In this document: piece by piece, positions 5,164 through 25,797 of the stretch | Position numbering within the stretch: position 1 is the first letter of the stretch | How the letters are laid out: each line of letters begins with the position of its first letter | Source: Candidatus Kapaibacterium sp. | GTDB lineage: Bacteria; Bacteroidota; Ignavibacteria; Palsa-1295 | Assembly: GCA_046590195.1 (NCBI GenBank) | Contig: JBKJTP010000102.1 | Coordinates: forward strand, 1 to 40,972 | Reading direction: 5' to 3' | Length of the DNA stretch: 40,972 bases | Translations under genes and position numbers: made by a program | Notes under the pieces: generated by a model | What the model saw: the letters and a program-made list of their open reading frames with translations, nothing else | Database searches by the model: none | What the model was told of the DNA's origin: nothing

Positions 5164-6504
5164 TTACCGGCTAACCACAAACCGGTGAAAGCTTGCCTCG
5201 TCTTCCGATACTAAGTAGTATATCCCATTTGTTAAGTCGCTAACATCAACCGTTGTTGGCATCGTCGTAAGATCAACATGCTTCATTGTTCGTCCGAGCG
5301 CGTCCACAACGCGAACGGTACCGACAAGGCTAGATTGGTCAATGGTAAGAGTTGCATTGGCCGGATTTGGATAAAGACTGGCACTCGTCAGATCACTGCT
5401 TAATTCTACTGACAGCGGCTCGCCCGGTGTTATGCGTACCACTTTATTTTTCGTCTTGTTCACATACCAGATGGCTGAGTCAGGTCCAACTTTCACTCCC
5501 ATAATTCCTGCCTCGCCCGTATTTACAGATCCAAGATACTCTGGAGGATTAACTGTCACATCATAGATCCGAATCACTCCAGTACTGTTTGCGCTCACAA
5601 TCAAACGACCTTGGAAGTAATCGATTCCGCACAACTTGGTGAGCCCGGAATCTAATGTCTCCACCTTAACTCCCTCTACGAGTGAGTACTCCACCAGCAA
5701 CTCATTCTGAGTAAACAATTCGTCTGTGACCTCACCAGATCGCGTCTGAACGCGTAGAATGCGATTATTGCCATTATCTACCGCGTAGAGCCAGCCCGTT
5801 GACTCATCTAGCACCAGATGACTGGGCAGAGAAGCGACACGCTTCACAGGGACTGCAAATTCCCTTACAATACCATTTGAATGGTCATCCTCACCGTAGC
5901 CATGAGGGTCCTGAAAATCGTACCGATAAATTGCTTTGTTGAACCCGTCAAATACCCAATAGACATTTCCTGTGTCGGCTGCGATACCCATTGTGAACGG
6001 GCTCTCGTGCAGCATGTCTAAATGACTACCGAGTGGCTCATTTTCGATCCAATTATTCTGATTGATCCTAGCGAAGAGGGCAGTATCGGAATCCCAAAGC
6101 GCGGGTCCCATAAAAGTGCTTGTAGTGTTACCTGCGGTATTCCTGATGTCAGCGCTTGTACCGAAATTACCGTTTGCGGCCATTGCAATGCCGCTTGCAT
6201 TCATCATGAAGTGACCGGCATGAGAGTCATGACGATACTCGGTCCATTGAGTGCTTGTTCCAGCATTATAGACTATCACCACAGTCCCGCCGTTAGCGTC
6301 TCCTTTGTTTAAGATCCAAAGTTCTTTTTCTCTTCCAGGCACCCTACAAAAATCGAGGTCCTGAGGTGAAGATACCTTTGCCTTACTGTCTGCGACAACT
6401 GTCGCAATGGGAGTGGTGTTAATGTATCTATCGATTGGATTCTGTTGAGCTTGTACAATTGAACAACAACAACAGAAAGCGATGGCTACTAGTGATGATC
6501 TCAT
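5164..6504 (-). CDS. Secreted beta-propeller-like protein with His/Met motifs and T9SS C-terminal domain
   Basis: Signal peptide ending VQA-Q; propeller-like blades; HDSHAGHFM, SHLDMLHESP, HGYGEDDH; LYPNP...DALGR...NGIY C-terminus. ATG at 6504 preferred to TTG at 6525. Confidence 0.75.
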   Translation of the reverse strand: MRSSLVAIAFCCCCSIVQAQQNPIDRYINTTPIATVVADSKAKVSSPQDLDFCRVPGREKELWILNKGDANGGTVVIVYNAGTSTQWTEYRHDSHAGHFMMNASGIAMAANGNFGTSADIRNTAGNTTSTFMGPALWDSDTALFARINQNNWIENEPLGSHLDMLHESPFTMGIAADTGNVYWVFDGFNKAIYRYDFQDPHGYGEDDHSNGIVREFAVPVKRVASLPSHLVLDESTGWLYAVDNGNNRILRVQTRSGEVTDELFTQNELLVEYSLVEGVKVETLDSGLTKLCGIDYFQGRLIVSANSTGVIRIYDVTVNPPEYLGSVNTGEAGIMGVKVGPDSAIWYVNKTKNKVVRITPGEPLSVELSSDLTSASLYPNPANATLTIDQSSLVGTVRVVDALGRTMKHVDLTTMPTTVDVSDLTNGIYYLVSEDEASFHRFVVSR

Positions 6505-6553
6505 AGTTTGTGCATTGACTTTCAAGTCTGCGAATATAAGGATAAACCCAGGA

Positions 6554-6597
6554 TCTAGACTTAAATTCGACGGATTCTAGACTTAAATTCGGCGGAT
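6554..6597. repeat. 22-bp tandem direct repeat, 2 copies, 1 mismatch
   Basis: tctagacttaaattcgacggat / tctagacttaaattcggcggat. Confidence 0.9.
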
Positions 6598-6685
6598 TCA
6601 GGCCTCCAGATCCATAAAGCACACCTAACCTCCATAACTGGTACTCAAAGTGTCCTGACCAATCAGCCTTGCGTATTCGAGCCAC

Positions 6686-6871
6686 ATGTTGCAACGTCGA
6701 ACCGGGAAGAAAATAGCGAAAGCGCTTAGTATTGCTCTTCTACTCCTCCTTGGAGGAGTTCTCATCAGAGCTGAGTATGACTGGTTTGGATATTTGACGG
6801 TTGGAATTGCTGTCGTTTTCCTGTTTGAGTGGAGGCGCAGTGAAGGATCATCCGGTGAGCAGAGGTGGTGA
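6686..6871 (+). CDS. Possible small two-helix membrane protein
   Basis: Basic N-terminus followed by two hydrophobic stretches; no family recognised. Confidence 0.4.
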   Translation: MLQRRTGKKIAKALSIALLLLLGGVLIRAEYDWFGYLTVGIAVVFLFEWRRSEGSSGEQRW

Positions 6872-7035
6872 TCAACAGGACACTTTAAGCCGGATTTTCG
6901 CAGCCCATCTACTAATGCTGGAGGCTGTCTTTCTCTTGGATGCTTGTTATGGGAGACCAGCGTCCGAAATACCTTTTGGTTACACTAGGATCCAACAAGT
7001 TTTAGTCGGGTCTGACCAAGTCAACTTCAATGGTT

Positions 7036-7068
7036 ACTGTAACCACTAAGACATTAGCGGCGTCATAG
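7036..7068 (+). promoter_or_regulatory. Putative ECF-sigma promoter ACTGTAACC-N16-CGTCATAG (copy 1)
   Basis: ECF-type AAC/CGT boxes directly upstream of the sigma gene; same boxes and spacing at 11814. Confidence 0.8.
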
Positions 7069-7086: not shown

Positions 7087-7620
7087 ATGACCAACGAAGA
7101 AGTACAAAAGCAGATATTAGCACACCGATCTAAGCTTGTGGCCTATGTCGCGGGTAAGGTTCAGAACGTGGATATTGCAGAAGACATCGTGCAAGAAGGG
7201 TTACTCAAAGCTTTGCGGTCAGCGCCTGATCTCAAAGAAGATGAGAAATTGCTCCCGTGGTTTTACCGCATACTCCAAAATGCTATCATTGACGAGTATC
7301 GAAAGGAGGGTAGGTTAGCAAAGCGGCAGGAGGCTTATGCCATTGAACACACATCGATAATGACGGATGAGGATAAATCAACCGTTTGTGAGTGCTTCAA
7401 GGACCTGATGCCTTCGCTTAAACCCGAGTATGCAGAGGTGCTTGATGCTTTGGACCTCAATGAGGAGGATCCAGATGCGGTTGCAAATCGCCTTGGTGTC
7501 ACTCGGGGAAATCTCAAAGTGCGAGCGCACCGGGCTCGTCAACAGTTGAGATCGAAGCTTGAGGAGACCTGCCAAATGTGTGCACGACACGGGTGTCTGA
7601 ACTGTACTTGCATTCGGTAG
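7087..7620 (+). CDS. CorE-like (ECF44) metal-responsive ECF sigma factor
   Basis: Sigma2 (AEDIVQE, PWFYRILQNAIIDEYR) and sigma4 (VRAHRARQQL); linker CxC (VCEC); Cys-rich tail CQMCARHGCLNCTC; no adjacent anti-sigma. Confidence 0.88.
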   Translation: MTNEEVQKQILAHRSKLVAYVAGKVQNVDIAEDIVQEGLLKALRSAPDLKEDEKLLPWFYRILQNAIIDEYRKEGRLAKRQEAYAIEHTSIMTDEDKSTVCECFKDLMPSLKPEYAEVLDALDLNEEDPDAVANRLGVTRGNLKVRAHRARQQLRSKLEETCQMCARHGCLNCTCIR

Positions 7621-7640: not shown

Positions 7641-7862
7641 ATGGATTATACGCATATGGTTACAGAAACAATCAAGATCGGGGGGATGAGTTGCGCAGGT
7701 GCTTGCGTGCGCAGCGTTAAACAGGCACTCAACGAAGTCGATGGTGTGAAGATAAACGAAGTTGGACTCGGGTTCGCCAGCGTCACATACGATGAGGAAG
7801 CTGATGTTCGAGATCTCACACTTCAAGCGATTAAGCAAGCTGGCTTTAAGCCTGTGTCTTGA
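7641..7862 (+). CDS. CopZ-like HMA copper chaperone
   Basis: About 70 aa, GGMSCAGAC...VKQAL.EVDGV...AIKQAGF HMA pattern; start may be 7656. Confidence 0.85.
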   Translation: MDYTHMVTETIKIGGMSCAGACVRSVKQALNEVDGVKINEVGLGFASVTYDEEADVRDLTLQAIKQAGFKPVS

Positions 7863-7870
7863 ATCCTGAG

Positions 7871-7905
7871 AGGGAGGTCGGGCTCGGCTTCCCTAATTTT
7901 TTTTT
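7871..7905 (+). terminator. Terminator-like hairpin between chaperone and ATPase
   Basis: agggaggtcg-ggct-cggcttccct followed by aa and T9. Confidence 0.7.
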
Positions 7906-7930
7906 GCTGTGTCCAATCTGCACCATACCA

Positions 7931-10120
7931 ATGAATCACGCTGATCATAGTCATCACAACCGGCACGATCCTAAACCTCACCATTTGGATATGCCAGGCA
8001 AGCCCGAACCGGTTGGGCAGGACCCATTGGATGAGACGCTGGGCACTGATAGCGAGCACAAGCCTCATGTTGATGCTCATGCTCAAGCAGATCACTCGGC
8101 GCATGTCCATGATATGCATGCAGGACACAGTTCTGACGAGCATGCAGGACACAGTTCTGATAAGCACGCTGGACATAGTCCCGAGCTTTTCAAGCAAAAA
8201 TTCTGGACGAGTCTCGCTCTGACAATCCCGATCCTATTCTTTGATCATCACATTCAAGCTGCGATAGGCCTCAGAGGAATCGACTTTCAAGGCTCTGAAT
8301 TCATAACTCCAGTACTGTCTGTGATCCTTTTCATTTATGGAGGATCAGCATTCCTGCTCAGTGCCCGACACGAGTTAGCGAATCGCCAGCCTGGTATGAT
8401 GACGCTGATCTCGCTAGCCATCTCGGTTGCGTTCCTGTACAGCGTTGCCGTTAGCTTCGAAATGATAGGAGGGATGCCGCTCTATTGGGAGCTAGCTACT
8501 CTGATCGACATCATGCTACTCGGCCACTGGATCGAGATGTCATCGATACAGGGAGCAGGTAAGGCACTGGAACATCTCGCATCTCTTGTGCCGAATACAG
8601 CGCACGTTGTTCATGGACAGGCTATTCATAACATGGAAGTGAAAGCTGTGCGTCCTGGGGATCGAGTGCTTGTGCGTCCGGGTGAACAAGTACCACTTGA
8701 TGGCAAGATCGTGGAAGGTAAATCTAGCTTTAACGAGTCATTTCTTACCGGCGAGTCAAAACCTGTCCAGAAAGTCGAAGGTGATGAGGTACTGGCAGGC
8801 TCAGTAAATGGTGAGGGGGCAGTGACATTTGAGGTGTCCAGAACCGGGAGTAACACGACTCTCAATCAGATACAGAGACTGGTTGACGAAGCACAAAAGT
8901 CTCGGAGCAAATTCCAGAACCTTGCGGATCGTGCTGCATCGTGGCTGACATATATCGCCGTCGGTTCAGGCCTGATCACGTTGCTTGCATGGCTCATAGG
9001 AGGAGCGACGCCGGATTTCGCTATCATCCGAACTGTTGCCGTTCTTGTGATGGCATGTCCGCACGCACTCGGACTAGCGATCCCGCTGGTGATCGTGAAC
9101 GCCACATCGTTAGCTGCAAGGCATGGAATCCTGGTCCGAAATCGTGAGGCCTTTGAACGCGCACGGGACATTAAGCAAGTAGCGTTTGATAAGACTGGCA
9201 CGCTAACAGAAGGCGCATTTGGGCTGGTGGATATCAGCACATTAATTGATCGCCACGAGGCTCTTAGGCTCGCAGGTTCCCTGGAGGCGAGATCTGAACA
9301 TCCGCTGGCTCGGGCGATTGCAGCGTCAGCCATAGAAGTTAAAGCCAATCTTTCAACACCTTCTGATTTCAAAGTCGATGCAGGACGAGGTGTCGAAGGT
9401 GAGCTTGAAGGAAGACGCTACTACATTGGCAGTCTAAACTGGCTCCAGGAGCGGAAGATCAAGATTGGAAACGACTCATTGGAGTTTATTCGAGACTCAG
9501 AAAGCAAGGGCTACACAACAATAGTACTCTTTGATGACCACTCCGCCTTAGCCACATTTTCGCTTGGTGATAAGATCAAGTCGGACGCCAAGCTCGCAAT
9601 TCAGACACTACAATCACGAGGCATCGAGCCTGTGATGATCACGGGAGACTCTGAAACGGTAGCTAATAGTGTGGCCAGAGAACTTGGGATAAGATCAGTG
9701 CGTGCACGAGTCCTGCCTCAAGACAAAGCAGCAATTGTCAAAGAACTGAGCAAACAAGGAGCCGTTGCCTTTGTCGGAGATGGCGTCAACGATGCCCCGG
9801 CCCTTCTAGAGGCCGATCTGGGAGTGGCAATCGGTGCAGGTACCAATGTCGCTATTGAGTCTGCTGACCTCGTATTGATCAATAGCCGACCGTCCGATGT
9901 GGTGAATGCGATCCTGCTCTCAGGGATGACATATCGAAAGATGATTCAGAACCTACTCTGGGCAACGGGCTACAACGCGATTGCTTTGCCTCTAGCGGCT
10001 GGCGTTGCCATCCCGCTCGGCATTGTAGTCTCTCCTGCCATCGGTGCTGCATTCATGAGCGCATCGACGGTCATTGTCGCTCTAAATGCCCTTTCGCTCA
10101 AACGGACCAAGTTGATATGA
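7931..10120 (+). CDS. copB: P1B-3 (CopB-type) copper-exporting ATPase
   Basis: His-rich N-terminus, TGES, CPHALGL, DKTGTLT, SEHP, GDGVNDAP, YN and MSAST; ATG at 7931 preferred. Confidence 0.93.
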   Translation: MNHADHSHHNRHDPKPHHLDMPGKPEPVGQDPLDETLGTDSEHKPHVDAHAQADHSAHVHDMHAGHSSDEHAGHSSDKHAGHSPELFKQKFWTSLALTIPILFFDHHIQAAIGLRGIDFQGSEFITPVLSVILFIYGGSAFLLSARHELANRQPGMMTLISLAISVAFLYSVAVSFEMIGGMPLYWELATLIDIMLLGHWIEMSSIQGAGKALEHLASLVPNTAHVVHGQAIHNMEVKAVRPGDRVLVRPGEQVPLDGKIVEGKSSFNESFLTGESKPVQKVEGDEVLAGSVNGEGAVTFEVSRTGSNTTLNQIQRLVDEAQKSRSKFQNLADRAASWLTYIAVGSGLITLLAWLIGGATPDFAIIRTVAVLVMACPHALGLAIPLVIVNATSLAARHGILVRNREAFERARDIKQVAFDKTGTLTEGAFGLVDISTLIDRHEALRLAGSLEARSEHPLARAIAASAIEVKANLSTPSDFKVDAGRGVEGELEGRRYYIGSLNWLQERKIKIGNDSLEFIRDSESKGYTTIVLFDDHSALATFSLGDKIKSDAKLAIQTLQSRGIEPVMITGDSETVANSVARELGIRSVRARVLPQDKAAIVKELSKQGAVAFVGDGVNDAPALLEADLGVAIGAGTNVAIESADLVLINSRPSDVVNAILLSGMTYRKMIQNLLWATGYNAIALPLAAGVAIPLGIVVSPAIGAAFMSASTVIVALNALSLKRTKLI
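8117..8185 (+). repeat. 24-bp coding tandem repeat (HAGHSSDE/HAGHSSDK/HAGHSPE)
   Basis: catgcaggacacagttctgacgag, catgcaggacacagttctgataag, cacgctggacatagtcccgag. Confidence 0.9.
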
Positions 10121-10262
10121 CCAAATTGTCTAAGCGTGTAACTTTGTTGCCTCAGATGCATTAGATTGTGTCAGGCTTCAATCGTGAAGTGGCTTCCCTT
10201 GAAGCTTCTTCGTTTTGAGCAGTTGTAACTCCTTAATCGTGATTCGAAATCACCACTTCTTT

Positions 10263-11756
10263 ATGCGTCAGTTTCTATCACTATTGTTGCTTTTCGTTGC
10301 GACAGATGTCTTTGGACAGGAATTCTCGATGCCGGTAGCATTGGACGTAGGTTCTCAGGCACAAAGTAGGTCACCAGAGGTCCATTCCACAAGAGGTAAG
10401 GTGTACGTGGCCTATTTCGAAGGAGTTCTTAACATTCGATTCAGACGGTCCACCGACGGAGGTATCTCCTTTGGTACCCCTAGCCTTGTCGTTGAGGGCT
10501 TGAGCAGCAACCATTATAACATGATGTTGCAGCGCGCCCCTAAGTTCGTCGTTGATCCATCTGGACTGATACATCTCACGTGGACAGAAGATAGACACAT
10601 GATGCAAGGAGATGTTTGGTATGTGCGGTCCACTGATGACGGAAGTACCTGGACTCAACCAGTATCACTCTCGGGTAGTGGTGACTCAATGAAGTACGCT
10701 CAGGACTTTGCTTCAATCGCCTCCGATTCATCCGGAAATCTCTACGTGTCTTTTCTGGATTTTCGAGATCGGGTTCGAGGGCTCAGTGACTATACTCAAC
10801 TTTACCTTACGAAATCAACGGACAAAGGCTTGACGTGGTCTGAGCCGAAGCGAATCAGTTACTACACCTCGGGAGATGGGGGAACCTGTGAGTGCTGCAA
10901 ACAGGAGATCGCTGCAAGCAAAGAAGGTAAGGTTTATGTAGCCTATCGCTCCAATATTGATAACATCCGAAACATTTACATGGTAAGGTCGCTCGATCAG
11001 GGTTCGACGTGGAAGACGGCCGAAAGGGTACAAGACGGAGATTGGGAGCTTATGGCATGCCCTACACAAGGACCGAATGTCGCTCTTGATCCCGATGGAA
11101 ATCTACATATGACTTGGCGTGACGCCAGGAACAAGGATGGCAATCCGATAGGCAACCGGGTCTTCTATGATGTTTTTGACGATGGGACGGAGACGTCATT
11201 CCCAGATCGCGAAGTTACACCTATCAATGAAAACGGTAGCTGGCCAGCAATTACAATGGTAGAAGAGGCCAGCGGAATGTGGTATCCCGAGATCTACTAT
11301 CAGAGTAGCGGCATGAACGGAGCGATCAAGGTCAGACGATTCAATGGTGCCTCCTTTACTCCAGCCGAATCTATCGTTGATCGGAATTCCAGCTCAGAGC
11401 TTGTGAGCGTCACGGTTGACCAATCGAATAGAGTGCATGCCGTGTGGCAGGAGAGCGAGACCGGCTCGACAGATAAGGGAGACATCTATTATTCTCGATC
11501 TTCAATCGCCGCAGGTGTATCTCCGGCTGGGTCCCTTGAATATTTCATAGGCGTTAAGAATAACGTTCTAAAGTTTGATCATCAGACTAACAGGAGTTAC
11601 GAATTTACAATCTATGATATTTTGGGCAGGTCAACTATGAGAGGTACTATCTCTTCAGATCAAGAAATTGCGCTCAATGTGTTGCCAGCTGGCTTCTATA
11701 TGATCAAGCTGAATAGTGATGGACTTGAGAGCATCTCAAAGTTTACTATTAGGTAG
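10263..11756 (+). CDS. Secreted BNR/Asp-box beta-propeller with CECC and CPxxGP motifs and T9SS-like C-terminal domain
   Basis: Signal peptide; Asp-boxes STDGGISF, STDDGSTW, STDKGLTW, SLDQGSTW; TCECCK; MACPTQGP; IYDILGR...AGFYMIK. Confidence 0.8.
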   Translation: MRQFLSLLLLFVATDVFGQEFSMPVALDVGSQAQSRSPEVHSTRGKVYVAYFEGVLNIRFRRSTDGGISFGTPSLVVEGLSSNHYNMMLQRAPKFVVDPSGLIHLTWTEDRHMMQGDVWYVRSTDDGSTWTQPVSLSGSGDSMKYAQDFASIASDSSGNLYVSFLDFRDRVRGLSDYTQLYLTKSTDKGLTWSEPKRISYYTSGDGGTCECCKQEIAASKEGKVYVAYRSNIDNIRNIYMVRSLDQGSTWKTAERVQDGDWELMACPTQGPNVALDPDGNLHMTWRDARNKDGNPIGNRVFYDVFDDGTETSFPDREVTPINENGSWPAITMVEEASGMWYPEIYYQSSGMNGAIKVRRFNGASFTPAESIVDRNSSSELVSVTVDQSNRVHAVWQESETGSTDKGDIYYSRSSIAAGVSPAGSLEYFIGVKNNVLKFDHQTNRSYEFTIYDILGRSTMRGTISSDQEIALNVLPAGFYMIKLNSDGLESISKFTIR

Positions 11757-11777
11757 GCTTGTCTAATCGATTGACAT

Positions 11778-11805
11778 AAAAGGCTGTCTTGGACAGCCTT
11801 TTTTT
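11778..11805 (+). terminator. Rho-independent terminator
   Basis: aaaaggctgtc-ttg-gacagcc followed by a T run. Confidence 0.85.
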
Positions 11806-11813
11806 GTTCAGAA

Positions 11814-11846
11814 ACTGTAACCGGAGGAGATTTGGTGGCGTCATAG
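11814..11846 (+). promoter_or_regulatory. Putative ECF-sigma promoter ACTGTAACC-N16-CGTCATAG (copy 2)
   Basis: Same boxes and spacing as 7036-7068; lies between a terminator and copA. Confidence 0.8.
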
Positions 11847-11861
11847 GGGAAATTGATCCGT

Positions 11862-14132
11862 ATGATTCAAACTAAAATAAATAATACTGCGTCCCGGCAA
11901 TTGCCATCCGACGCTTCTACGATAGTCGTCGAAGGGATGACTTGCGCCTCATGCGGCCGCCATGTGGAGAAGTCACTTAGCAAAGTGCCTGGTGTCCTGA
12001 AGGCCAGTGTCAACCTCGCGACCAATAAAGCATCCGTACAACACGATCCATCCGTTCAACGGGAGGCTCTCTATCGAGCGATAGAACATGCAGGCTATCA
12101 TCCTGTCACTGAGGGCGAACCTCAGCAGAGTGCGAGCAGCTTGCACAAGAATCCATTTAAAAAGCCGCTGATCTTAGCAGCCCTGCTTACGCTGCCGATC
12201 TTTCTGCTCGAGATGATACCAATGATCATCCCTGCGGTCGGACAGTGGCTCTACGGTGTGCTGGATCATTCTACAAGCTCTACGATGGTATTCTTGCTTG
12301 CTACTGCGATCCAGTTCGGGCCGGCAAAGCTGTTCTATTCAGCTGGTTGGAGAGGGTTGATCCATGGCAGCCCGAACATGAATACCCTTGTCATGCTCGG
12401 AACAAGCGCGGCTTATGGTTACTCGGTTGTGCTGATGTTCTTCCCAACATGGTTACCAAACACTGGTGGCCACGGATACTTCGAGGCGGCCTCGATGGTG
12501 ATCACGCTGGTATTGCTAGGAAAGCACCTGGAGCACCTCGCAAAGTCGCGCACATCAAGTGCGATCCAGAAGCTCATCGCGCTTCAACCTCGAACAGCGA
12601 AGGTCGTGCTCGATGGCAAAGAGAGTGAAGTCCCCGTGGAGTCAGTAAAGGTGGGCGATCACGTGAGGATACGTGCTGGTGACCGAGTACCACTTGATGG
12701 AGAGATCGTTGGAGGAATGTCATTTCTAGACGAGTCGATGATCTCGGGCGAGTCGCTCCCGGTTGAGCGAAGCGTGGGGGATCCAGTGATCGGTGGTACA
12801 CAGAATTTGAGCGGCAGCTTCGTCTTTGAGGTGAAACAGGTTGGTACCGAGACGGTGCTTTCGAAGATCGTCAAAATGGTTGAGGACGCTCAAGGCAGCA
12901 AGCCGGCCATCCAAGCGCTTGCCGACAAAGTGATAGCTGTGTTCGTCCCGATCGTGCTAGGCCTGGCATTGGTGACATTTCTCGCATGGCTCCTCTTTGG
13001 ATCAGGCACAGCGAGTAACTTTGCGATCGGCGCTGCTGTGGCGGTGCTGATCATTGCATGCCCGTGTGCGATGGGACTTGCAACTCCGACATCCATCATG
13101 GTATCAACTGGCCGAGGAGCTGAACTCGGAACGCTGTTTCGCAACCCAGAAGCCTTGGAAACATTGGCCCACGTCGATGTCTTCGCCTTCGACAAGACCG
13201 GCACTTTGACGCTGGGCAAACCCGAGCTTACCGATCTACAAGTGGCCGATGGGAATGATGAAGAGTTGGTGCTCCAAGTATTAGGCTCGCTGGAAACGCA
13301 TTCAAATCATCCTGTTGCGCAAGCCGTAGTCAGAGCTGTACTGGAGTCAGGCACTGAGATCGTGGAGGTCGAGCAATTTCAAGAGATTGCGGGACGAGGG
13401 GTTTCCGGCAAAGTTGGAGCAATGGTATACTATGTTGGCTCGCACTCGTGGATGACGGAGCTTGGTCTTTCGACCGATGGGCTCGATCAGCCGTATCTAC
13501 GCTTTGCAGAAAAGGGCATGAGCACTGCGTTCCTGGCTAGCTCCGAGCGTTTGCTTGCGGTCCTTGCCGTGGCTGATGTTGTCAAGGAGTCTTCGGCGAT
13601 CGCTATTGAGCGACTGAAAAACGAAGGCAAAGAAGTTGTGATGATCACAGGAGACGATGAGCGTGTAGCTCGGGCGATCGCGCGCTCGATCGGGATCAGT
13701 AATGTGATCGCTGAGGTCTTACCTCAGGATAAGGCTAACATCGTGAAGGAATTACAGCGAGGAGGCAGGAAGGTTGCATTCATAGGCGACGGGATCAACG
13801 ATGCTCCTGCACTTGCCCAGGCCGATGTAGGAATAGCGATGGGTACCGGCAGCGACATAGCGATCGAAACTGGTGACGTGATCTTGATGAATGGCGATGT
13901 TACTTCAGTCTCAAAGGCAGCGAACTTGTCTCGGCTTACGATCAAGAACATCAAGCAGAACCTGTTCTGGGCGTTTGCCTATAATGTTCTGTTGATACCT
14001 GTGGCGGCCGGCGTTCTCTACCCATCGTTTGGGATCACGCTAAGCCCTGCGCTTGCGGCAGCTGCCATGGGGATATCCAGCATCTTTGTACTAGGAAATT
14101 CCCTCAGACTCAAGAAGGTCGCATTGGGCTAA
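11862..14132 (+). CDS. copA: P1B-1 Cu(I)-exporting ATPase
   Basis: GMTCASC HMA domain, YFEA, CPCAMGLATP, DKTGTLT, GDGINDAP, YN, MGISS. Confidence 0.95.
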   Translation: MIQTKINNTASRQLPSDASTIVVEGMTCASCGRHVEKSLSKVPGVLKASVNLATNKASVQHDPSVQREALYRAIEHAGYHPVTEGEPQQSASSLHKNPFKKPLILAALLTLPIFLLEMIPMIIPAVGQWLYGVLDHSTSSTMVFLLATAIQFGPAKLFYSAGWRGLIHGSPNMNTLVMLGTSAAYGYSVVLMFFPTWLPNTGGHGYFEAASMVITLVLLGKHLEHLAKSRTSSAIQKLIALQPRTAKVVLDGKESEVPVESVKVGDHVRIRAGDRVPLDGEIVGGMSFLDESMISGESLPVERSVGDPVIGGTQNLSGSFVFEVKQVGTETVLSKIVKMVEDAQGSKPAIQALADKVIAVFVPIVLGLALVTFLAWLLFGSGTASNFAIGAAVAVLIIACPCAMGLATPTSIMVSTGRGAELGTLFRNPEALETLAHVDVFAFDKTGTLTLGKPELTDLQVADGNDEELVLQVLGSLETHSNHPVAQAVVRAVLESGTEIVEVEQFQEIAGRGVSGKVGAMVYYVGSHSWMTELGLSTDGLDQPYLRFAEKGMSTAFLASSERLLAVLAVADVVKESSAIAIERLKNEGKEVVMITGDDERVARAIARSIGISNVIAEVLPQDKANIVKELQRGGRKVAFIGDGINDAPALAQADVGIAMGTGSDIAIETGDVILMNGDVTSVSKAANLSRLTIKNIKQNLFWAFAYNVLLIPVAAGVLYPSFGITLSPALAAAAMGISSIFVLGNSLRLKKVALG

Positions 14133-14257
14133 TCGGCGGCTACGCACAGTACTTACGCACCGGATCGGGGGAGTTTAGTGCAGTTGTGGCCGCCCACGCT
14201 GCCTTGGATGAGTCGGAACTGCAACATTTCCCAACGCATTCGTAGAGTGATACACAC

Positions 14258-14647
14258 GTGAATAAGCTTTTCTCCATACTCCTTCTTTTCGCTGTCGCCC
14301 TTTCGAGCGTCGGCATGAGTGTCAATCAGCACTCATGCAAGATGTCGAAAGAGGAGATCGAGGCCAGTATGTGCGAGATGTGCTCAAAGGAAGACCAAGG
14401 CGAGCCACTGGAATCTCCACAGAATAGTAAGAAGTCCTGCTGTTCGAACAAGGCTGTTCACCTGCGTCTGGATACGGACGCCACCAGCACAAAGGCTCAA
14501 TTCACACCGCAGCCGATCATTTCCGAGCCACTCGTAGATATTCTCCTGGAATCGGCGTGGGTGAACGCAGAGGCTGATGGACCCACCCAGATCGAGGCTC
14601 TCCCCGCTTTCCCGCTCTCAGAGGAACACACCGTTCTAAGGGTGTAG
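14258..14647 (+). CDS. HYC_CC_PP/DUF2946-like small Cys/His-rich exported protein
   Basis: Hydrophobic N-terminus, HSC, CEMC, SCC, Pro-containing tail ending VLRV; first gene of the metal-efflux operon. Confidence 0.65.
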   Translation: MNKLFSILLLFAVALSSVGMSVNQHSCKMSKEEIEASMCEMCSKEDQGEPLESPQNSKKSCCSNKAVHLRLDTDATSTKAQFTPQPIISEPLVDILLESAWVNAEADGPTQIEALPAFPLSEEHTVLRV

Positions 14648-14781
14648 TACGCCCTTTTCCTTCGTAGCACATCCCTCGAATTGGGAGTTTCGGCTACCCC
14701 TGCTACCCCAACAACTTTATAGATGACGCCGTCCTTCAGGAAAGGCGCGTCCATTTGCATTCATCCTTTTATCTTAGTTCA

Positions 14782-15798: not shown

Positions 15799-17081
15799 TG
15801 TTGAAAGTCGCTCTCATTGTCGCTTTCAGTCTCTTCGCTGTAAGTGTCCAGGCTCAGATCAGGACACTTACAGTCGAGGAAGCGATCATTCGCGCCCAAG
15901 ATCGTGCGCCGGAGAAGTTGCGGACCGAATCGCTCGAACGTCAAGCGCAAGCCGTTCGACAGAATGCTTCAAGGGCCTTTGACAAGCGACCTGAATTAGA
16001 GGTCGAGTATATCACTGAAGCTCCGTTCGGTGAACGCGACTACGAGTTGTCCGTGGGTATCTTGCAGGAGATACCGGTCTGGGGTGTGTCGGCTCGTCGT
16101 GGCGATGTCGCGAGCGCGCTTGAGAAGGCAAGTGTCGAGAGTCGCAACACTCTCAACAACGCGATTGCGCTTCGCACCAGGTTGCTCTACAATCGAGCAT
16201 GGTCTCTCTCGCAACAGATCGAGTTGGGTAACCGATTGATCGCTACGTCGAACAAACTAGCTGCCGCAACCGATAAGCGACTGTCGGTAGGCGATGTCTC
16301 TCGACTCGAGAGAAACGCTGTCGTGCTCGAGACGAATTCGATCAGGATCGAGCATGAGCAGGTACACAGCAACTACGAGCAAGCGATCGGTGAGCTCGAA
16401 GCATTGACCGGTCTTGAGTTAAACGACGTTGAGCTCACGCCCGACAGATCGAGCACGATCGCGATAGACAGCTTCACTGTAAATGCGCATCAACTCTCGC
16501 CGGAATGGATTAGACTTCGGAATCAGACCGATATCGCACGCGCACAGCTCGAGCTGGCTAAGGCAGAACGGTCAGGCAACCCGACGTTGGGGTTGCACTA
16601 TTCGGAAGATCTCCTCACGATCGGTGACGAGGACATCGCTTACGATCCAGGAGCTTCTCATACTATTGCAGGCATCACGTCGCGGGGTCGCTCCGCAGGA
16701 CTAAGTTTTTCGATGGAGCTTCCGATCACGATACCGGGATTGTGGGGTCCCAGTAATTCGGAGGTCATCGAGCGCGAGACTGAACTTCGCTTGCTTGAAG
16801 CCGATCTCCGGGAATTTGAGATGCAGCTTGCAGGCAGAGTTGCGAGGTTACGTCCGAAATTATCTAGGATCACCCGTTCGGTAGGCATTTATCAAGAGTC
16901 GGTCGATTTGATCAACGAGAATTACGAGCTGCTCGATCGAGGATATGAAGGTGGCGAGCTTTCAGTAACGGAGCTACTCGTTGGCAGACAGCAGTTGGTC
17001 GAATTACAAACAAGACAGCTTGAACTCTTGAAGGAAATGCAGGAGGCTGAGATAGAGCTACAAAGTATTATCGGCAGATGA
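15798..17081 (+). CDS. TolC-family outer-membrane efflux protein (CzcC/CusC-like)
   Basis: Signal peptide, helical repeats (VGDVSRLE, YEGGELSVTELL); TGATG coupling to the upstream gene. Confidence 0.85.
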   Translation: MLKVALIVAFSLFAVSVQAQIRTLTVEEAIIRAQDRAPEKLRTESLERQAQAVRQNASRAFDKRPELEVEYITEAPFGERDYELSVGILQEIPVWGVSARRGDVASALEKASVESRNTLNNAIALRTRLLYNRAWSLSQQIELGNRLIATSNKLAAATDKRLSVGDVSRLERNAVVLETNSIRIEHEQVHSNYEQAIGELEALTGLELNDVELTPDRSSTIAIDSFTVNAHQLSPEWIRLRNQTDIARAQLELAKAERSGNPTLGLHYSEDLLTIGDEDIAYDPGASHTIAGITSRGRSAGLSFSMELPITIPGLWGPSNSEVIERETELRLLEADLREFEMQLAGRVARLRPKLSRITRSVGIYQESVDLINENYELLDRGYEGGELSVTELLVGRQQLVELQTRQLELLKEMQEAEIELQSIIGR

Positions 17082-17758
17082 AAAACATTCTTTTAGTAAT
17101 TCTTCTCAGCATTGTAGGCGCATTCAGTACGAATGCGATCGCTGGTGGTGGCGATGATCACACGCATGGCGATGGAGCAGTCGCTGTTACAGCCTCTACC
17201 GCGAAGGACGGCCAACTGCGAATTGTCAGCTATCCTGGTGGTCTTGAAGTGTTCGTAAAGTATCCTGCACCGAAGCTCAATGAGCCGGTCATTGGACGAC
17301 TGTTCTTTGCGGACTATGCGACAAATCATCCGGTCGATCCGACGGGTATTGAGTTGTCGTTTCCGGGCGCATTCGGAGCGAAGGTGACGAAGCAACCTAC
17401 AAAGATCAGCGATGGAGTTTATGAGTTTGTCGCTCTCTTTGCCCGGGATACAGGCCACACTGCTTTATTGCGATACACGTACGGAGCTGCTGAGCAGCTC
17501 GCATCGCTCTCACCATTCTATGCAGGAGCATCGGCAACGAGAGCGATGTCAGCCACTGGAGGTAATTCGCTGGCTCAAGACGAGGACGGGATTTTCCCAA
17601 CCTGGATACTCATCCCGATCGCGATCGGTCTTGCACTTCTATTTTACGTGCTCTTCACGCGTCGGAGAAAACGTCTGCAATTTGTGAAGTCGCAATCGAG
17701 TGCATCGACTATTTCGAAAGCAAACGCATCCACCGTCACACAAACGATATCAAAGTGA
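17078..17758 (+). CDS. Hypothetical periplasm-facing protein with N-terminal DDHTH and C-terminal membrane anchor
   Basis: Signal peptide, GGGDDHTHGD, TM helix followed by RRRKR; overlaps both neighbours by 4 nt. Confidence 0.75.
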   Translation: MKNILLVILLSIVGAFSTNAIAGGGDDHTHGDGAVAVTASTAKDGQLRIVSYPGGLEVFVKYPAPKLNEPVIGRLFFADYATNHPVDPTGIELSFPGAFGAKVTKQPTKISDGVYEFVALFARDTGHTALLRYTYGAAEQLASLSPFYAGASATRAMSATGGNSLAQDEDGIFPTWILIPIAIGLALLFYVLFTRRRKRLQFVKSQSSASTISKANASTVTQTISK

Positions 17759-18891
17759 AATATAAAAACCATATCGGGATGATCCTTTGCGTGACGGGCC
17801 TCTTTGCCGTCACACGTGCGCTTGCGCATGGCGATGAAGATCACTCGGCTCCGAGTACAAACGCAACTCCAGCTGCGAGTGACGCGACGGCCGTTGGGTA
17901 TATCAGCATTGTGAAAGAGTCACAGTTCGCTCTCGGAATTCTGACAGAGCGCGTCGCTGAAAGAACGATGGCAATGACCCGCACAGTCACTGGCAGGATC
18001 ATCCCGACTGCAAACGGCCGCGCCGAAGTCTATGCACCACAGGAAGGCCGCATCATTTCTTCACGTGCCTGGAAAATCGGGGATAGAGTCACCAAAGGTC
18101 AGGCGCTATTCTCTGTTGAACAGACGCTAACCGGGACTGAACGATTGGGACTTGAGCGCGACCTCATCGAAGCGCAGCGCGAAGTAGAAGAGGCTTCTCG
18201 CGACTACAACCGCAAGCGCTCGCTTGAAGGTGTAGTCGCTCAAAAGGAGATTGAGTTCGCGCGTATTCGTTTGGATGGTGCAAAGGAGCGGCAGGCAGCA
18301 CTACAGCGCGTGCTCTCGCAGGGGACAAAACCAGTTACTTGTACAGCACCGATCTCAGGAAGCATCAGCTCGGCCGATGTAGTGGGCGGAGAGTTCGTCG
18401 AAGTAAGCAAGCGTTTGCTGGAGATCGTCAACACTTCTGAGGTTTGGGTTGAAGCACAGTTCTTCGAGTCAGATCTTGCAGCGATGCCGAAGGGCACAGG
18501 CGCTATTGTCACAAGTCCTTCGGCTGTGGGTACATACGTCGGGTCGCTGATATCGGTTGGAAACGTGATCAGCGCTGAATCGAGAACGGCACCTGTCATC
18601 TTTGCTGTCGCGAATCGCAATGAGCAATTGAAGATCAATGCAAGCGCAGAGATCGCGATCAGCAGCGGAGTCGATCAATCAGTGATCGCCGTACCGAAAA
18701 CAGCGATTGTCCGATCTGGCGGCAAATCGTATGTCATCGTCCACCGCGGGCCGGAAGAATTTGAACCTGTCGAGGTCATGAGTGGCGCAGGTGCGGATGA
18801 GACGCATGTCCAGTTAACAAGCGGTGTCAAAATTGGCGACAAGGTCGTGACAACTGGCCTCACCCATTTCAAGGGCAACCTACCACAGTAA
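17755..18891 (+). CDS. RND membrane-fusion protein (CzcB/CusB-like)
   Basis: AHGDEDH N-terminus; APQEGRI, APISG, VWVEA, VPKTAI, GDKVVTTG motifs. Confidence 0.9.
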   Translation: MKYKNHIGMILCVTGLFAVTRALAHGDEDHSAPSTNATPAASDATAVGYISIVKESQFALGILTERVAERTMAMTRTVTGRIIPTANGRAEVYAPQEGRIISSRAWKIGDRVTKGQALFSVEQTLTGTERLGLERDLIEAQREVEEASRDYNRKRSLEGVVAQKEIEFARIRLDGAKERQAALQRVLSQGTKPVTCTAPISGSISSADVVGGEFVEVSKRLLEIVNTSEVWVEAQFFESDLAAMPKGTGAIVTSPSAVGTYVGSLISVGNVISAESRTAPVIFAVANRNEQLKINASAEIAISSGVDQSVIAVPKTAIVRSGGKSYVIVHRGPEEFEPVEVMSGAGADETHVQLTSGVKIGDKVVTTGLTHFKGNLPQ

Positions 18892-18902
18892 GAAGCGAAT
18901 TC

Positions 18903-21900
18903 ATGTTCGACAAACTTATTGCCTTCTCACTCAAGAATCGCCTGTTCGTGGTCGCAGCCGCGAGTCTGCTTTTGGTCTATGGCACCTATGTTCTGATCAA
19001 TCTGCCTGTAGATGTTCTGCCAGATCTTAACCGTCCGACCGTGACGATCATGACAGAAGCTGAAGGATTAGCGCCGGAAGAAGTTGAAACGTTGGTGACG
19101 CGCCAGATCGAAACCTCGATGAACGGCGCACCGGGTGTTGAAAGGGTGCGATCGGTTTCAGGTATCGGTCTTTCGATCGTTTATGTGGAGTTCGGATGGA
19201 GCACGGACATCTATCTTAATCGGCAGTTGGTTACCGAACGGCTTCAAACCGCTGCTGCAAGTCTTCCGCAAGGCATCACACCTACGCTGGGCCCGATCTC
19301 TTCAGTGATGGGGCAGATCATGATGCTTGGCGTCACATCGACCGAGCATCAGCCGATGGATGTTCGCACCTTCGCCGACTTTACGATTCGGCAACGTTTG
19401 CTTACGATCCCAGGCATCGCCCAGGTCATTGCAATTGGCGGCGGCGTGAAGCAGTACCAAGTCCTGCTGAACAACACAGCGCTGGCTTCATACGGTATCT
19501 CTGTTAATGAGGTAGAGGAAGCTTTGGCAGCATCCACTCGCAATACTACTGGAGGGTATATTGAGTCGCAGGGTGAAGAATACCTCGTCCGAAATATAGC
19601 GACCACTGCTTCGATCGAGGACATTGGCAATACCGTGGTGCAAGCGGAACGCGGCAGACCACCGGTGCTGGTTCGACACATTGCACGAGTTCAATTTGGC
19701 GCTCAGGTCAAGCGCGGTGACGCGAGTCTGAATGGGCGGCCGGCAGTCATCCTTTCGATTGAAAAGCAGCCGAACGCGAATACGCTGGAGTTGACCGAGC
19801 AGATCGATGCTGCGCTCGACGAGCTTGAGCACTCGCTTCCGGTTGGGATGAAGATCAACCGCGAGGTATTCCGCCAATCGCACTTCATTTCAAGCGCAAT
19901 TAGCAACGTCGAGGAAGCACTTCGCGATGGGTTCATCCTCGTTACACTTGTGCTGTTCCTTTTCCTGCTGAACTTCCGCACTACGCTCATCACCCTAACA
20001 GCAATACCCCTGTCGATCGTGATCACAGCGATCATCTTCCAGATCTTCGGAGTCTCGATCAACACGATGACGCTCGGCGGATTGGCAGTTGCGATCGGTG
20101 AACTGGTCGACGATGCTATCGTGGACGTGGAGAATGTGCACAGGCGGCTGCGAGAAAATCGCGCGCTTGCAAGTCCGCTGCCGGTCTTGACAGTAGTGTA
20201 CCGAGCATCTAAAGAGGTTCGGAATTCCATCGTCTACGCGACGATCCTTGTGGTGCTCGTCTTCCTACCACTCTTCGCAATGCAGGGGATGGAGGGCCGA
20301 ATCTTTGCACCGCTAGGTATCGCCTACATCACGAGCATCCTGGCGAGCCTCTTCGTATCGCTTACTGTTACGCCGGCCCTAGCTTCTTATCTGCTTGCAA
20401 AGGGCAAACTGAAAGAAGAGAAGGACAGCCGATTCGTTTCGTGGTTGAAGAATCAGGATAGAAGGGCTCTTGCAAAGAATCTGGAAGATCCCAAGCCGAT
20501 CCTGATCGGTGTTGGTGTGTTATTCGCAGCGTCGTTAGCGGTAGTGCCTTTCCTCGGTACTGAGTTCTTGCCACCATTTAATGAAGGCAGCCTAACGATC
20601 AACGTCCTCGCACAACCCGGCACTTCGCTCGAGGAATCGAATCGGCTCGGTACGAGCATCGAGAAGCAACTGATGCAAGTGCCGGAAGTTGTTAATGTTG
20701 CAAGGCGTACTGGCCGAGCTGAACTCGATGAACACGCCGAGGGCACGCATTCAAGCGAGATCGAAGTTGATCTCAAAGAAACTGATCGAGATCGTGAGGA
20801 GGTCCTGGCGGCGGTCCGCGAGCGACTCGATCTATTCCCCGGTGTTGTGATCAACGTTGGACAACCGATCTCGCATCGGTTGGATCATTTGCTCAGCGGC
20901 GTACGTGCCCAGATCGCAGTGAAGCTTTTTGGGAATGATCTCTCGGTCATCCGAGCAAAGGCGGAAGAGATACGCAAGGCACTGGCTTCGGTGCCGGGTG
21001 CAGTGGATGTCTCAGTCGAGAAGCAGACACTTATCCCTCAGATTCCTATCGTTATTGATCGTGCGCGTGCAGCTCAGTATGGGCTAGCTCCTGGATACAT
21101 TGCCGAGTATCTTGAGACGTTGCTTAACGGACGCGTTGTGGCGCAAGTCCTGGAAGGGCAGCGAACGTACTCCCTTGTGATCCGCGGCGACACAACGCTC
21201 AGAACGACACCTGAACTCATGGGTGATCTCTTTATCCAGTCGCCGACAGGGGTCAGTGTTCCTCTTCGAGAGATTGCCACAGTCAATGTTGGTCAAGGTC
21301 CCAATTCGATCAGTCACGAGAACGTCCAACGGAGGATTGTCATCCAGGCCAACGTTTCCGAACGGGCTCTTGGTGATGTCGTGAAGGATATGCAAGCTGC
21401 AGTTGCAGAGCGCGTGCAGATGCCGGAGGGCTATTTCGTTACTTTTGGTGGACAGTTCGAGTCCCAGCAGGATGCTAGCAGATTAATCGGCATTTTGAGT
21501 ATCTTCTCGCTCGCGGCGATGTTCCTTGTGCTGTACACGCACTTCAAGTCGGCGGCCATCGCGTGGCAGATCTTGCTGAACATCCCGCTTGCGCTCATCG
21601 GCTCGGTGATCGCTATCCTGATCACGAACGGAACAGTCTCCGTTGCAAGTTTGGTCGGCTTCATTACGCTGACCGGCATCGCATCACGAAACGGTATTAT
21701 GATGATCTCGCACTATCTTCATCTGGTCAAAGAAGAGGGAGAAACATTCTCAAAGGAGATGATCATTCGTGGATCGCTCGAGCGCCTGGTGCCAGTATTA
21801 ATGACTGCGATCACTGCAGGACTGGCTCTCATTCCTCTTGTGCTTGCAGCAGGTGAGCCGGGCAAAGAGATCCTGTATCCTGTGGCAGTCGTCATTCTAG

Positions 21901-22037
21901 GTGGTCTTGTAAGCTCAACACTTCTGGATATCGTGATCACTCCGCTAGTCTTTCATAAGTACGGGGAGCGAGCACTGAAGCGGTACATCGATGCTCATTC
22001 CAGGAATTCCCAACTCATAAACTCTGATGAACCATGA
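18903..22037 (+). CDS. CusA/CzcA-family heavy-metal RND transporter
   Basis: 1044 aa; VDVLPDL, AIGELVDDAIVDVEN, FLPPFNEG, ERLVPVLMT. Confidence 0.95.
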   Translation: MFDKLIAFSLKNRLFVVAAASLLLVYGTYVLINLPVDVLPDLNRPTVTIMTEAEGLAPEEVETLVTRQIETSMNGAPGVERVRSVSGIGLSIVYVEFGWSTDIYLNRQLVTERLQTAAASLPQGITPTLGPISSVMGQIMMLGVTSTEHQPMDVRTFADFTIRQRLLTIPGIAQVIAIGGGVKQYQVLLNNTALASYGISVNEVEEALAASTRNTTGGYIESQGEEYLVRNIATTASIEDIGNTVVQAERGRPPVLVRHIARVQFGAQVKRGDASLNGRPAVILSIEKQPNANTLELTEQIDAALDELEHSLPVGMKINREVFRQSHFISSAISNVEEALRDGFILVTLVLFLFLLNFRTTLITLTAIPLSIVITAIIFQIFGVSINTMTLGGLAVAIGELVDDAIVDVENVHRRLRENRALASPLPVLTVVYRASKEVRNSIVYATILVVLVFLPLFAMQGMEGRIFAPLGIAYITSILASLFVSLTVTPALASYLLAKGKLKEEKDSRFVSWLKNQDRRALAKNLEDPKPILIGVGVLFAASLAVVPFLGTEFLPPFNEGSLTINVLAQPGTSLEESNRLGTSIEKQLMQVPEVVNVARRTGRAELDEHAEGTHSSEIEVDLKETDRDREEVLAAVRERLDLFPGVVINVGQPISHRLDHLLSGVRAQIAVKLFGNDLSVIRAKAEEIRKALASVPGAVDVSVEKQTLIPQIPIVIDRARAAQYGLAPGYIAEYLETLLNGRVVAQVLEGQRTYSLVIRGDTTLRTTPELMGDLFIQSPTGVSVPLREIATVNVGQGPNSISHENVQRRIVIQANVSERALGDVVKDMQAAVAERVQMPEGYFVTFGGQFESQQDASRLIGILSIFSLAAMFLVLYTHFKSAAIAWQILLNIPLALIGSVIAILITNGTVSVASLVGFITLTGIASRNGIMMISHYLHLVKEEGETFSKEMIIRGSLERLVPVLMTAITAGLALIPLVLAAGEPGKEILYPVAVVILGGLVSSTLLDIVITPLVFHKYGERALKRYIDAHSRNSQLINSDEP

Positions 22038-22444
22038 AGAGAACATTCGTTATTCTTACGTTATCCGTCGGCAGCCTCTTAGGTTGCGGCAAATCTGAAA
22101 CCTCTGATGGAGCGGCAACGACCCATTCGGATACTACCATGCACTCTACATCACAGCAGCCATCGACTCACTCTGGCATGGGCTCAGGCTCCATGGATGA
22201 TCAGATGCGCGCTATGAATTTGCAGATGGTTCAGCATATGGGGCCGGCAGACGCTGAATACGATCACCGATTTATCGACATGATGATACCTCATCACGAA
22301 GGAGCGATCATGATGGCGAAAGATGCTCTCCAAAAGTCTCAACGTCCCGAGATTAAGAAGCTCGCAGAGGATATTATCGCAGCACAGGAGAAAGAGATCG
22401 CGCAATTGAAAGCATGGGGCGAGGCCTGGTACCATAAGCATTGA
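22034..22444 (+). CDS. DUF305 (CopM-like) Met/His-rich lipoprotein
   Basis: Lipobox LLGC; FIDMMIPHHEGAIMMA...IIAAQEKEI. Confidence 0.9.
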   Translation: MKRTFVILTLSVGSLLGCGKSETSDGAATTHSDTTMHSTSQQPSTHSGMGSGSMDDQMRAMNLQMVQHMGPADAEYDHRFIDMMIPHHEGAIMMAKDALQKSQRPEIKKLAEDIIAAQEKEIAQLKAWGEAWYHKH

Positions 22445-22497
22445 TCACATTTACTTGGACCGCGGATGAATGCCGCAGGCCCGCATCATCATATTCT

Positions 22498-23073
22498 ATG
22501 AAATATTTATTTCTACTTCTGTTCTCGATAGCGTGTGCTTCAGCAGCACACGCGCAGGATACCTGCAAGACCATTTCGCACAAGAATCCGCACGGTGCCT
22601 CAATGACCATCAGTCGCGTATGGATTCTGGACTCAGTTAATTTCCGGGTCCGACCGATCCAACAGCTTCCTTATCAGGAGGCAGCAACTGCCAGCTTCGA
22701 CTTTGAGGTCTGTATCCTTGCTCGTGATGGTAAAGAGTACTCTACACAAGTACGGTACATGACCACGCATGGCGTTGTCTCATATTCGATCAGCAATTTT
22801 CAGGCGCCCGGCGGCGTAAGTGCGGTCTTGAGCGAAGCACCTTCTTCTCAGCAGCTTATCTTTCCAAATCCTGCGCGAGAGATCATTACTATGCAGGGAT
22901 CAGCCGGAAGCGATTGGGTGATCTACGACATTGGTGGAGTAGCAAGGCTATCGGGCAGAACAACTGCATCTAGCGAGAGCGTAGAGGTCACGTCGCTCTT
23001 GCCGGGGTCCTACATCGTGAAGGTGACCACCTCGGCAGGTGTTGAAGAGACCCAACGATTGATCATTCAATAG
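22498..23073 (+). CDS. Small secreted protein with T9SS C-terminal domain
   Basis: Signal peptide ending AHA-Q; about 90 aa beta-rich domain; IFPNP...IYDIGG...PGSYIVKV. Confidence 0.8.
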   Translation: MKYLFLLLFSIACASAAHAQDTCKTISHKNPHGASMTISRVWILDSVNFRVRPIQQLPYQEAATASFDFEVCILARDGKEYSTQVRYMTTHGVVSYSISNFQAPGGVSAVLSEAPSSQQLIFPNPAREIITMQGSAGSDWVIYDIGGVARLSGRTTASSESVEVTSLLPGSYIVKVTTSAGVEETQRLIIQ

Positions 23074-25796: not shown

Positions 25797-25797
25797 G

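Follow-up and report, generated by a model that had tools for sequence, protein, structure and literature searches.

A copper-resistance island of a soil Kapabacteria genome with a candidate branch exported by the type IX secretion system

The stretch of DNA analysed here (the window: all 40,972 nucleotides of contig JBKJTP010000102.1 of Candidatus Kapaibacterium sp., C105 in our numbering) belongs to a soil metagenome-assembled genome (3.38 Mb, 92% complete) and carries three genes for proteins with a C-terminal sorting domain (CTD) of the T9SS (type IX secretion system), here called A, B and C, next to or among copper genes. Our analysis suggests a copper-resistance module with a conserved T9SS-exported branch. 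We put at roughly 60% the probability that the region is a copper-resistance island in which A and C are conserved components rather than chance neighbours, with C docking at the type-1 copper site of a CueO-like multicopper oxidase, A handling copper extracellularly and B perhaps forming a third component. This explanation draws on domains, conserved residues, synteny, operon-like spacing and a controlled complex prediction, from which we infer that copper is bound, that the proteins are secreted and placed at the surface, and which way copper flows; copper handling may extend past the outer membrane. An earlier note on this DNA had proposed an extracellular capture or buffering layer for metal. 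Of that proposal the link between T9SS cargo and copper genes proved to be real and conserved for A and C, while the link of B is weak, and C points to an oxidase partner rather than to a free buffer.

Results

Three unrelated proteins with T9SS sorting domains

The features on which the argument turns are the following.

5164-6504, - strand: protein A, with a putative signal peptide, a six-bladed NHL propeller and a T9SS CTD (about 5167-5376); seven invariant His codons lie within about 5818-6222
5122-5144, - strand: terminator-like hairpin directly 3' of A
10263-11756, + strand: protein B, with a putative signal peptide, a BNR_2 propeller and a T9SS CTD (about 11562-11753); the codons of C209, C211, C212 and C266 lie at about 10887-11060
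11778-11802, + strand: terminator-like hairpin directly 3' of B
22498-23073, + strand: protein C, with a putative signal peptide, an Ig-like domain (22558-22836) and a T9SS CTD (22858-23070)
23089-24537, + strand: CueO-like three-domain multicopper oxidase with a twin-arginine signal and a lipobox Cys, and with no CTD
24594-24620, + strand: strong terminator-like hairpin ending the CusCBA-DUF305-C-oxidase unit

All three open reading frames are present where the earlier note had placed its T9SS cargo, and in a TIGR04183 and PF18962 profile search their CTDs exceeded both curated cut-offs for type-A sorting domains (27 bits for PF18962, 23 bits for TIGR04183), with 40.2 and 32.6 bits for A, 27.7 and 31.5 bits for B, and 31.7 and 42.0 bits for C. 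The N-termini, read by eye as signal peptides, are hydrophobic and end in AQ or GQ, and the genome also encodes T9SS machinery, namely PorU (709.8 bits, cut-off 420) and SprA, found above its cut-off in a frame of 2465 aa. In fold the N-terminal parts of the three proteins are unrelated, that of A being an NHL propeller, that of B a BNR_2 propeller and that of C an Ig-like sandwich, and the clusters of His, Cys and Met residues that had drawn attention to them are real and conserved in homologues.

Protein C and its link to a CueO-like oxidase

The C gene lies 54 bp after the gene of a DUF305 protein and 15 bp before the oxidase gene; the stretch that runs from CusA through DUF305 and C to the oxidase gene contains no terminator-like site, and the oxidase gene is followed by a strong one. 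The N-terminal domain of C, of about 93 aa, was modelled by AlphaFold2 (AF2) as an all-beta Ig-like sandwich (predicted local distance difference test, pLDDT, 89.9). A fold search returned generic tandem Ig/PapD-like matches only, with a resemblance of the PapD/ASH type, and no Pfam family, CopC included, matched the domain at E<=10. The subfamily is marked by the signature QDTC-x6-NPHGxxM ... FxVC ... THG, and C3, H12, M16, C52 and H71 are conserved in all covering rows of an alignment of the window protein, eight metagenome homologues (65-79% identical) and four relatives.

Members of the C family occur in 15 of the 41 genomes compared (G000 included). The five best homologues come from four genomes of three genera and are 44-55% identical to C in the family search (37-50% by tblastn). 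All five are encoded upstream of an orthologue of the window oxidase (43-52% identical to it), at a distance of 14-45 bp in four cases and with one HMA/MauE gene in between in the fifth. The loci of weaker C paralogues held metal genes in 0 of 13 cases within the stretches fetched, and the paralogues without oxidase linkage in the same genomes are devoid of the Cys pair; the Cys-bearing, Met-rich paralogues of loci L047 and L050 have no oxidase nearby. A further locus (L044:5153-6040) encodes a tandem double C domain that is very rich in Met and shows His/Met swaps at conserved positions; here too an oxidase gene begins after it, where the contig ends.

The window oxidase matches PF07732, PF00394 and PF07731, i.e. 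three cupredoxin domains, and retains all of the copper motifs HxH, HxH, HxxHxH and HCHxxxHxxxxM, with H106/H108, H146/H148, H409/H412/H414, H464-C465-H466, H470 and M475 as invariant residues. Its best score was obtained against the CueO model, at 324.3 bits relative to an equivalog cut-off of 525, so that it is classed as CueO-like and not as an equivalog; a Met-rich insert was not seen by eye. Ten short oxidases of this Tat (twin-arginine translocation) type were found in the 41 genomes, nine of them with a lipobox Cys; C is encoded directly upstream of four and one gene further away from a fifth.

A possible contact between the two proteins was modelled by complex prediction with oxidase residues 29-482 and the N-terminal domain of C, alongside three controls. 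The median score of the predicted complex was 0.71, compared with 0.01 for the best control; 116 of the 157 solved complexes in a benchmark of this score reached the mark, as did 2 of its 215 mismatched pairs. The runs agreed in at least 95% of contacts, with a partner pLDDT of at least 85. On C the predicted interface comprises K9, P11, H12, G13, A14 and H71-S77, which are exactly both conserved His loops, and on the oxidase it comprises M366, D367, H368 and E400-E406, immediately before H409 of HxxHxH. In multicopper oxidases that His is a ligand of the type-1 copper, and the substrate Cu(I) site of CueO lies beside it. The model supports binding of C to the oxidase. A geometry of C read from its strand order was dropped because the complex model contradicts it, putting H12 and H71 at the same end. 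Likewise, co-variation of the oxidase segment LTMDH with C was considered and rejected, the segment being present in 9 of 9 short Tat-lipoprotein oxidases examined, 4 of them without C.

Other oxidase arrangements were seen in related loci. A CxxC protein of thioredoxin fold (AhpC/TSA-like) that bears a T9SS tail is encoded directly upstream of Tat-lipoprotein oxidases at L138:5547-6296, L139:2237-3106 and L140:4728-5492. In Kapabacteria relatives (L143-L146), longer oxidases in housekeeping contexts seem to bear both a twin-arginine signal and a CTD-like tail, the tail being visible in the alignment of L143 and L144. A paired two-domain oxidase-like CTD protein and Cu-oxidase_2 protein adjoin A or the Tat oxidase at L036:5393-7464, L037:1099-3179 and L138:6323-8421. 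Finally, CopA-type oxidases of 720-810 aa (L058:916-3165, L085:999-3278 and similar) end in a terminus resembling that of an outer-membrane beta-barrel (...GAGISFTY) and may represent an oxidase fused to a CopB/PcoB-like domain.

Protein A recurs near copper genes across Bacteroidota

Protein A has 906 homologues at E<=1e-5; the best 120 of these, from Kapabacteria, Flavobacteriales, Chitinophagales and Sphingobacteriales, are all at least 47% identical to it and are unnamed or labelled only as T9SS-domain proteins. In 30 diverse homologues (47-77% identity) H73, H76, H139, H144, H179, H186 and H207 are invariant, together with invariant Asp and Met. AF2 predicted a six-bladed NHL propeller (pLDDT 89), in line with an NHL Pfam match found in an A paralogue, and the model aligned to the NHL domain of TRIM71/Lin41 over 245-252 residues (VIA-align Z 27.4, root mean square deviation 2.2-2.3). 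Such structural matches are generic, with TRIM NHL domains, PAL and lactonases tying at Z 24-27 (TRIM71, PknD and PAL at Z 25-27) and PAL 3fw0, at Z 25.2, level with many unrelated NHL and SMP-30 proteins, and a profile search of solved structures together with an Atlas look-up yielded repeat-level or generic NHL matches and no specific enzyme.

Outside the window, eight A loci were found in the 41 genomes, one of them the paralogue in the own genome (contig C235), and five of the eight are copper loci by Pfam. The contents of these five include oxidases, CusF, HMA proteins, one DUF326 protein, an ATPase rich in His, CusCBA accompanied by a cupredoxin, CTD proteins of the galactose-oxidase-like kind and a two-domain oxidase with a CTD that is encoded by two genes. 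A wider survey, restricted to one genome per species, covered the best 80 of 293 relatives. A gene of our metal panel was present in 48 of these 80 loci, a gene of a stricter copper set in 37 and a multicopper oxidase in 25. In the own genome, by comparison, 3.2% of bases lie within 10 kb of a panel match and 0.8% within 10 kb of an oxidase, a baseline that comes from one genome and is set against related genomes that are not independent samples and against 80 loci of which many are short. The gene-neighbourhood check that the earlier note had called for came out in favour of A and of C, and gave a weak link for B (see below).

The most frequent neighbours of A in the 80 loci were a cytochrome-c/propeller protein (24), an oxidase (21), a HYC_CC_PP protein (20), a CxxC redoxin-CTD protein (19-22) and an AraC regulator (18-21), followed by a His-rich ATPase (17), a DUF3347 protein (14), an MbnP-like protein (9-15), CusB/CusA (12-13), a galactose-oxidase-like CTD protein (7) and a MauG-like protein (6). 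C-like domains were not detected in these loci by tblastn at E 1e-2. The CueO-like oxidases of A loci carry a TIGR04183 domain themselves in 17 of 17 cases (14 exceed the cut-off, and the other 3 score 20.2-21.2 bits); these tailed oxidases (loci L065-L136) belong to Flavobacteriales, Chitinophagales and others.

Protein B as a possible third component

Protein B, with a BNR_2 domain well above its cut-off (59.1 bits, cut-off 31.4), has C209, C211, C212 and C266 invariant in 13 sequences (a CxCC...C motif), and in a separate alignment the CxCC motif was kept in all but one of 19 B sequences. Two copper ATPase genes flank the B gene on its own strand, and a terminator is present only at the 3' side of B. 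Because this terminator-like hairpin follows directly after B, the CopB-type ATPase and B may form one transcription unit. B could still be a bystander, belonging to a widespread family of BNR propellers of unrelated function, with a Cys motif that is structural (disulfides or zinc), and we regard the odds of this as even. Its homologues occur in 35 of the 41 genomes (G000 included), mostly in lineage-conserved housekeeping synteny in the relatives, and the Cys motif is retained whatever the gene context. Moreover, no oxidase was found near B in any of 19 loci of relatives, and copper genes were present in 0 of 6 metagenome B loci, which were short and came from a narrow alignment; a metagenome scan with B as a single protein gave no match. 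What speaks for a copper role, apart from the position between the two ATPases, is that metal genes accompany B in 3 of the 19 relatives' loci, all of one genus (P=0.02 relative to the 3.2% baseline), and that B-like CTD proteins stand beside A in 10 of the 80 A loci (30% identity across 161 aa that include the Cys motif, E 6e-14). B is therefore treated here as a possible third protein of the copper module for which the evidence is thin.

Chance as an explanation of the clustering

T9SS cargo genes are common in this genome, and such genes might have fallen among the copper genes of a mobile island by chance or hitch-hiking and have no role in copper handling. The count of CTD genes is by itself near chance, because the genome (3.38 Mb) contains 148 matches to sorting domains: 0.78 CTD genes are expected in the 17.9 kb that hold A, B and C, where three were found (P(>=3)=0.045), and the four CTD genes of the 41-kb window correspond to P=0.107. 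The debris of an insertion sequence (IS) at the left edge of the window, with a fragment bearing an rve domain (310-825), a GH30-like CTD protein that adjoins A, and the lack of a nearby metal gene in 16 of the 19 B loci, with their housekeeping synteny, would likewise suit such an origin. The case for more than chance rests on comparative genomics. The five best C homologues all lie upstream of the same oxidase, an oxidase is near A in 25 of 80 loci against a baseline of 0.8%, and B-like proteins with the same Cys motif recur in A loci, which makes chance a very improbable explanation.

The remaining genes of the island and its surroundings

The other features of the island and of its left flank are listed below.

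1602-1694, - strand: remnant of a second A-type gene, 31 codons, 68% identical to A residues 332-364
1778-2182, - strand: small cupredoxin-like lipoprotein (EfeO N-domain-like; PF13473 23.4 bits, under the cut-off of 27), with a C-x4-H-x4-M motif read in the sequence
2399-4798, - strand: GH30-like glycosidase of 799 aa with a T9SS CTD, with an N-terminal domain that has no assignment and with no copper link shown
7087-7620, + strand: SigZ-like extracytoplasmic function (ECF) sigma factor whose C-terminal tail is rich in Cys, upstream of the CopB-type ATPase
7859-10120, + strand: P1B ATPase of the CopB type, with a His-rich N-terminus and a CPH motif
11853-14132, + strand: CopA-type P1B ATPase with an HMA domain and a CPC motif
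14258-14647, + strand: HYC_CC_PP family protein, of a family that often neighbours A elsewhere
14755-15798, + strand: HMBD/YtkA-like exported protein
15735-17081, + strand: TolC-like outer-membrane efflux protein
17078-17758, + strand: 226-aa protein with no family match; a His-rich N-terminal stretch and a C-terminal hydrophobic segment were seen by eye
17755-18891, + strand: CusB-like adaptor
18903-22037, + strand: CusA/CzcA-type pump of the resistance-nodulation-division family
22034-22444, + strand: DUF305/CopM-like protein

From 7859 to 24537 every gene lies on the + strand; A is on the opposite strand and is divergent from the ECF sigma factor gene. The tail of this sigma factor reads CxC...CxxC...CxxCxC, its SigZ-like score is under the equivalog cut-off, and the protein may regulate the copper island by sensing metal or redox state. 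To the left of A lie the GH30-like CTD protein, the cupredoxin-like lipoprotein, the A-type remnant and an integrase fragment of the IS3 type (rve domains), and broken frames across 310-1694 adjoin the remnant. The order cupredoxin then A is also present at a relative's locus (L040), and the remnant lies just downstream of the cupredoxin gene; an insertion has probably destroyed a cupredoxin-A gene pair resembling that of L040.

Beyond the island, 24855-32511 encodes a CarH-like MerR/B12-binding regulator, followed by two amine-oxidase/desaturase-like flavoproteins, an aldehyde dehydrogenase, an acyltransferase and a GT2 glycosyltransferase, and looks like a light-regulated, carotenoid-type cluster. 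At 33444-40728, 9 kb from the copper island, a nitrous-oxide reductase cluster comprises NosZ (nos_propeller and cupredoxin/COX2), NosL, NosD, an ABC ATPase and an ABC-2 permease, and then a ScdA/hemerythrin protein. The named database relatives of the window proteins are from Kapabacteria and other Bacteroidota, and a run search with the window DNA returned soil DNA runs from three studies and none of RNA.

Discussion

The observed linkage of A and C to copper genes leads us to favour a scheme in which the T9SS cargo takes part in copper defence. C would be made together with the CusCBA pump, the DUF305 protein and the CueO-like oxidase, and its His loops (H12 and H71) would, as the complex model predicts, dock on the oxidase beside the type-1 copper site. 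C would then bind Cu(I) via His, Met or Cys residues and hand it over to the oxidase for oxidation, or would complete the substrate site of the oxidase, and through its T9SS tail it would tie oxidase activity to the cell surface or the T9SS route. A would represent a secreted propeller marking a Bacteroidota-wide copper module whose T9SS cargo usually includes the oxidase itself, and might bind copper, or use it catalytically, outside the outer membrane. One could go further and regard C as a trans-acting, surface-targeting and substrate-presenting subunit of the oxidase: most Bacteroidota have a CueO-like oxidase with a T9SS tail of its own, whereas in this lineage the oxidase would have turned into a Tat lipoprotein to which a separate, tailed Ig-like protein binds at the type-1 copper side, the pair would be carried to or held at the surface, and C, together with A and perhaps B, would form an extracellular copper-oxidising and copper-capturing layer downstream of CusCBA. 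We consider this extended version distinctly unlikely.

Several observations, in addition to the near-chance number of CTD genes and the synteny of B, weigh against the favoured scheme. No panel gene was found in 3 of the 8 A loci (including the C235 paralogue) and in 32 of the 80 wider loci, some of which are short. Among the ten short Tat-type oxidases, three have a CxxC redoxin-CTD protein directly upstream instead of C and two have neither; C is not obligatory, since this applies to 5 of 10. The profile of the C domain matched 369 representative clusters, with giant repeat proteins making up many of these, which marks it as part of a generic superfamily of Ig-like repeats, and the two Cys residues of C could simply make a disulfide. 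The LTMDH segment at the predicted interface also occurs in short oxidases without C and thus gives no evidence of co-evolution. Moreover, an oxidase lipoprotein that faced the periplasm would be met by C in transit only.

The main rival to a role in copper defence is cofactor supply. According to this explanation A, and perhaps B and C, are secreted copper enzymes or helpers of such enzymes, and the neighbouring ATPases, chaperone-like proteins and redoxin serve to supply T9SS cargo with copper in the periplasm prior to export. This would fit the types of CTD cuproenzymes in related loci (galactose/glyoxal-oxidase-like proteins and two-domain and three-domain multicopper oxidases), which also contain MbnP-like and MauG/MbnH-like genes and CxxC redoxin-CTD proteins. 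An identity of about 50% between A proteins from Kapabacteria to Flavobacteriales suits an enzyme, and NosZ with NosLDFY, a copper-rich enzyme system, is encoded in the same window. However, the island is dominated by efflux (CusCBA and two exporting ATPases) and, with the CueO-like oxidase, corresponds to a classic detoxification set, and A has no match to a known enzyme beyond the generic NHL fold. We therefore judge cofactor supply to be unlikely, if worth keeping in view, and retain copper defence as the preferred explanation.

If the scheme of copper defence is correct, Bacteroidota possess an unstudied surface or extracellular branch of copper handling. The set of proteins exported by the T9SS would include the oxidase itself in most lineages, the 906-member family of His-rich propellers and small partner proteins. 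This would provide a first functional lead for the large unnamed family of protein A, would make C and the oxidase a concrete, testable pair of partners, and would give reason to examine T9SS mutants of culturable Flavobacteriia and Chitinophagia under copper stress.

The described copper defences (Cop, Cus, Cue and Pco) end at the outer membrane. In the literature searched, from which subscription journals were largely absent and which included PMC8400371, we found no paper tying T9SS cargo to copper homeostasis. Among systems with related elements, MbnP/MbnH resembles the A loci in that 9-15 of the 80 loci have an MbnP-like gene directly beside A and 6 have a MauG-like one. In contrast, the open reading frames of the window have no MbnP or CCP_MauG Pfam match, A has no similarity to either protein, and an MbnP-like query gave no tblastn match in the own genome.

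A closer parallel is offered by the pco and cop operons, where PcoC/CopC-type proteins are thought to present Cu(I) to PcoA/CopA oxidases. Like these proteins, C is exported, all-beta and small (about 100 residues), its gene adjoins that of a multicopper oxidase within a copper-resistance locus, and it has His and Met candidate ligands and a predicted docking position near the type-1 copper site of the oxidase. Unlike them, it has neither a sequence nor a Pfam relation to CopC, its fold is a PapD/ASH-like Ig fold and not that of CopC, and it carries a conserved Cys pair as well as a T9SS sorting domain, so that its predicted destination is the surface and not the periplasm. Similarly, the window oxidase shares with E. 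coli CueO, a periplasmic cuprous oxidase exported by the Tat route, the Tat signal, the three cupredoxin domains and all four copper motifs, but it is a lipoprotein, scores under the equivalog cut-off and is paired with a CTD protein, while its homologue in other Bacteroidota has a CTD of its own. With respect to export, A, B and C correspond to T9SS type-A cargo such as the gingipains and the cargo of Flavobacterium johnsoniae, having a putative signal peptide and a TIGR04183/PF18962 CTD in a genome that encodes both PorU and SprA.

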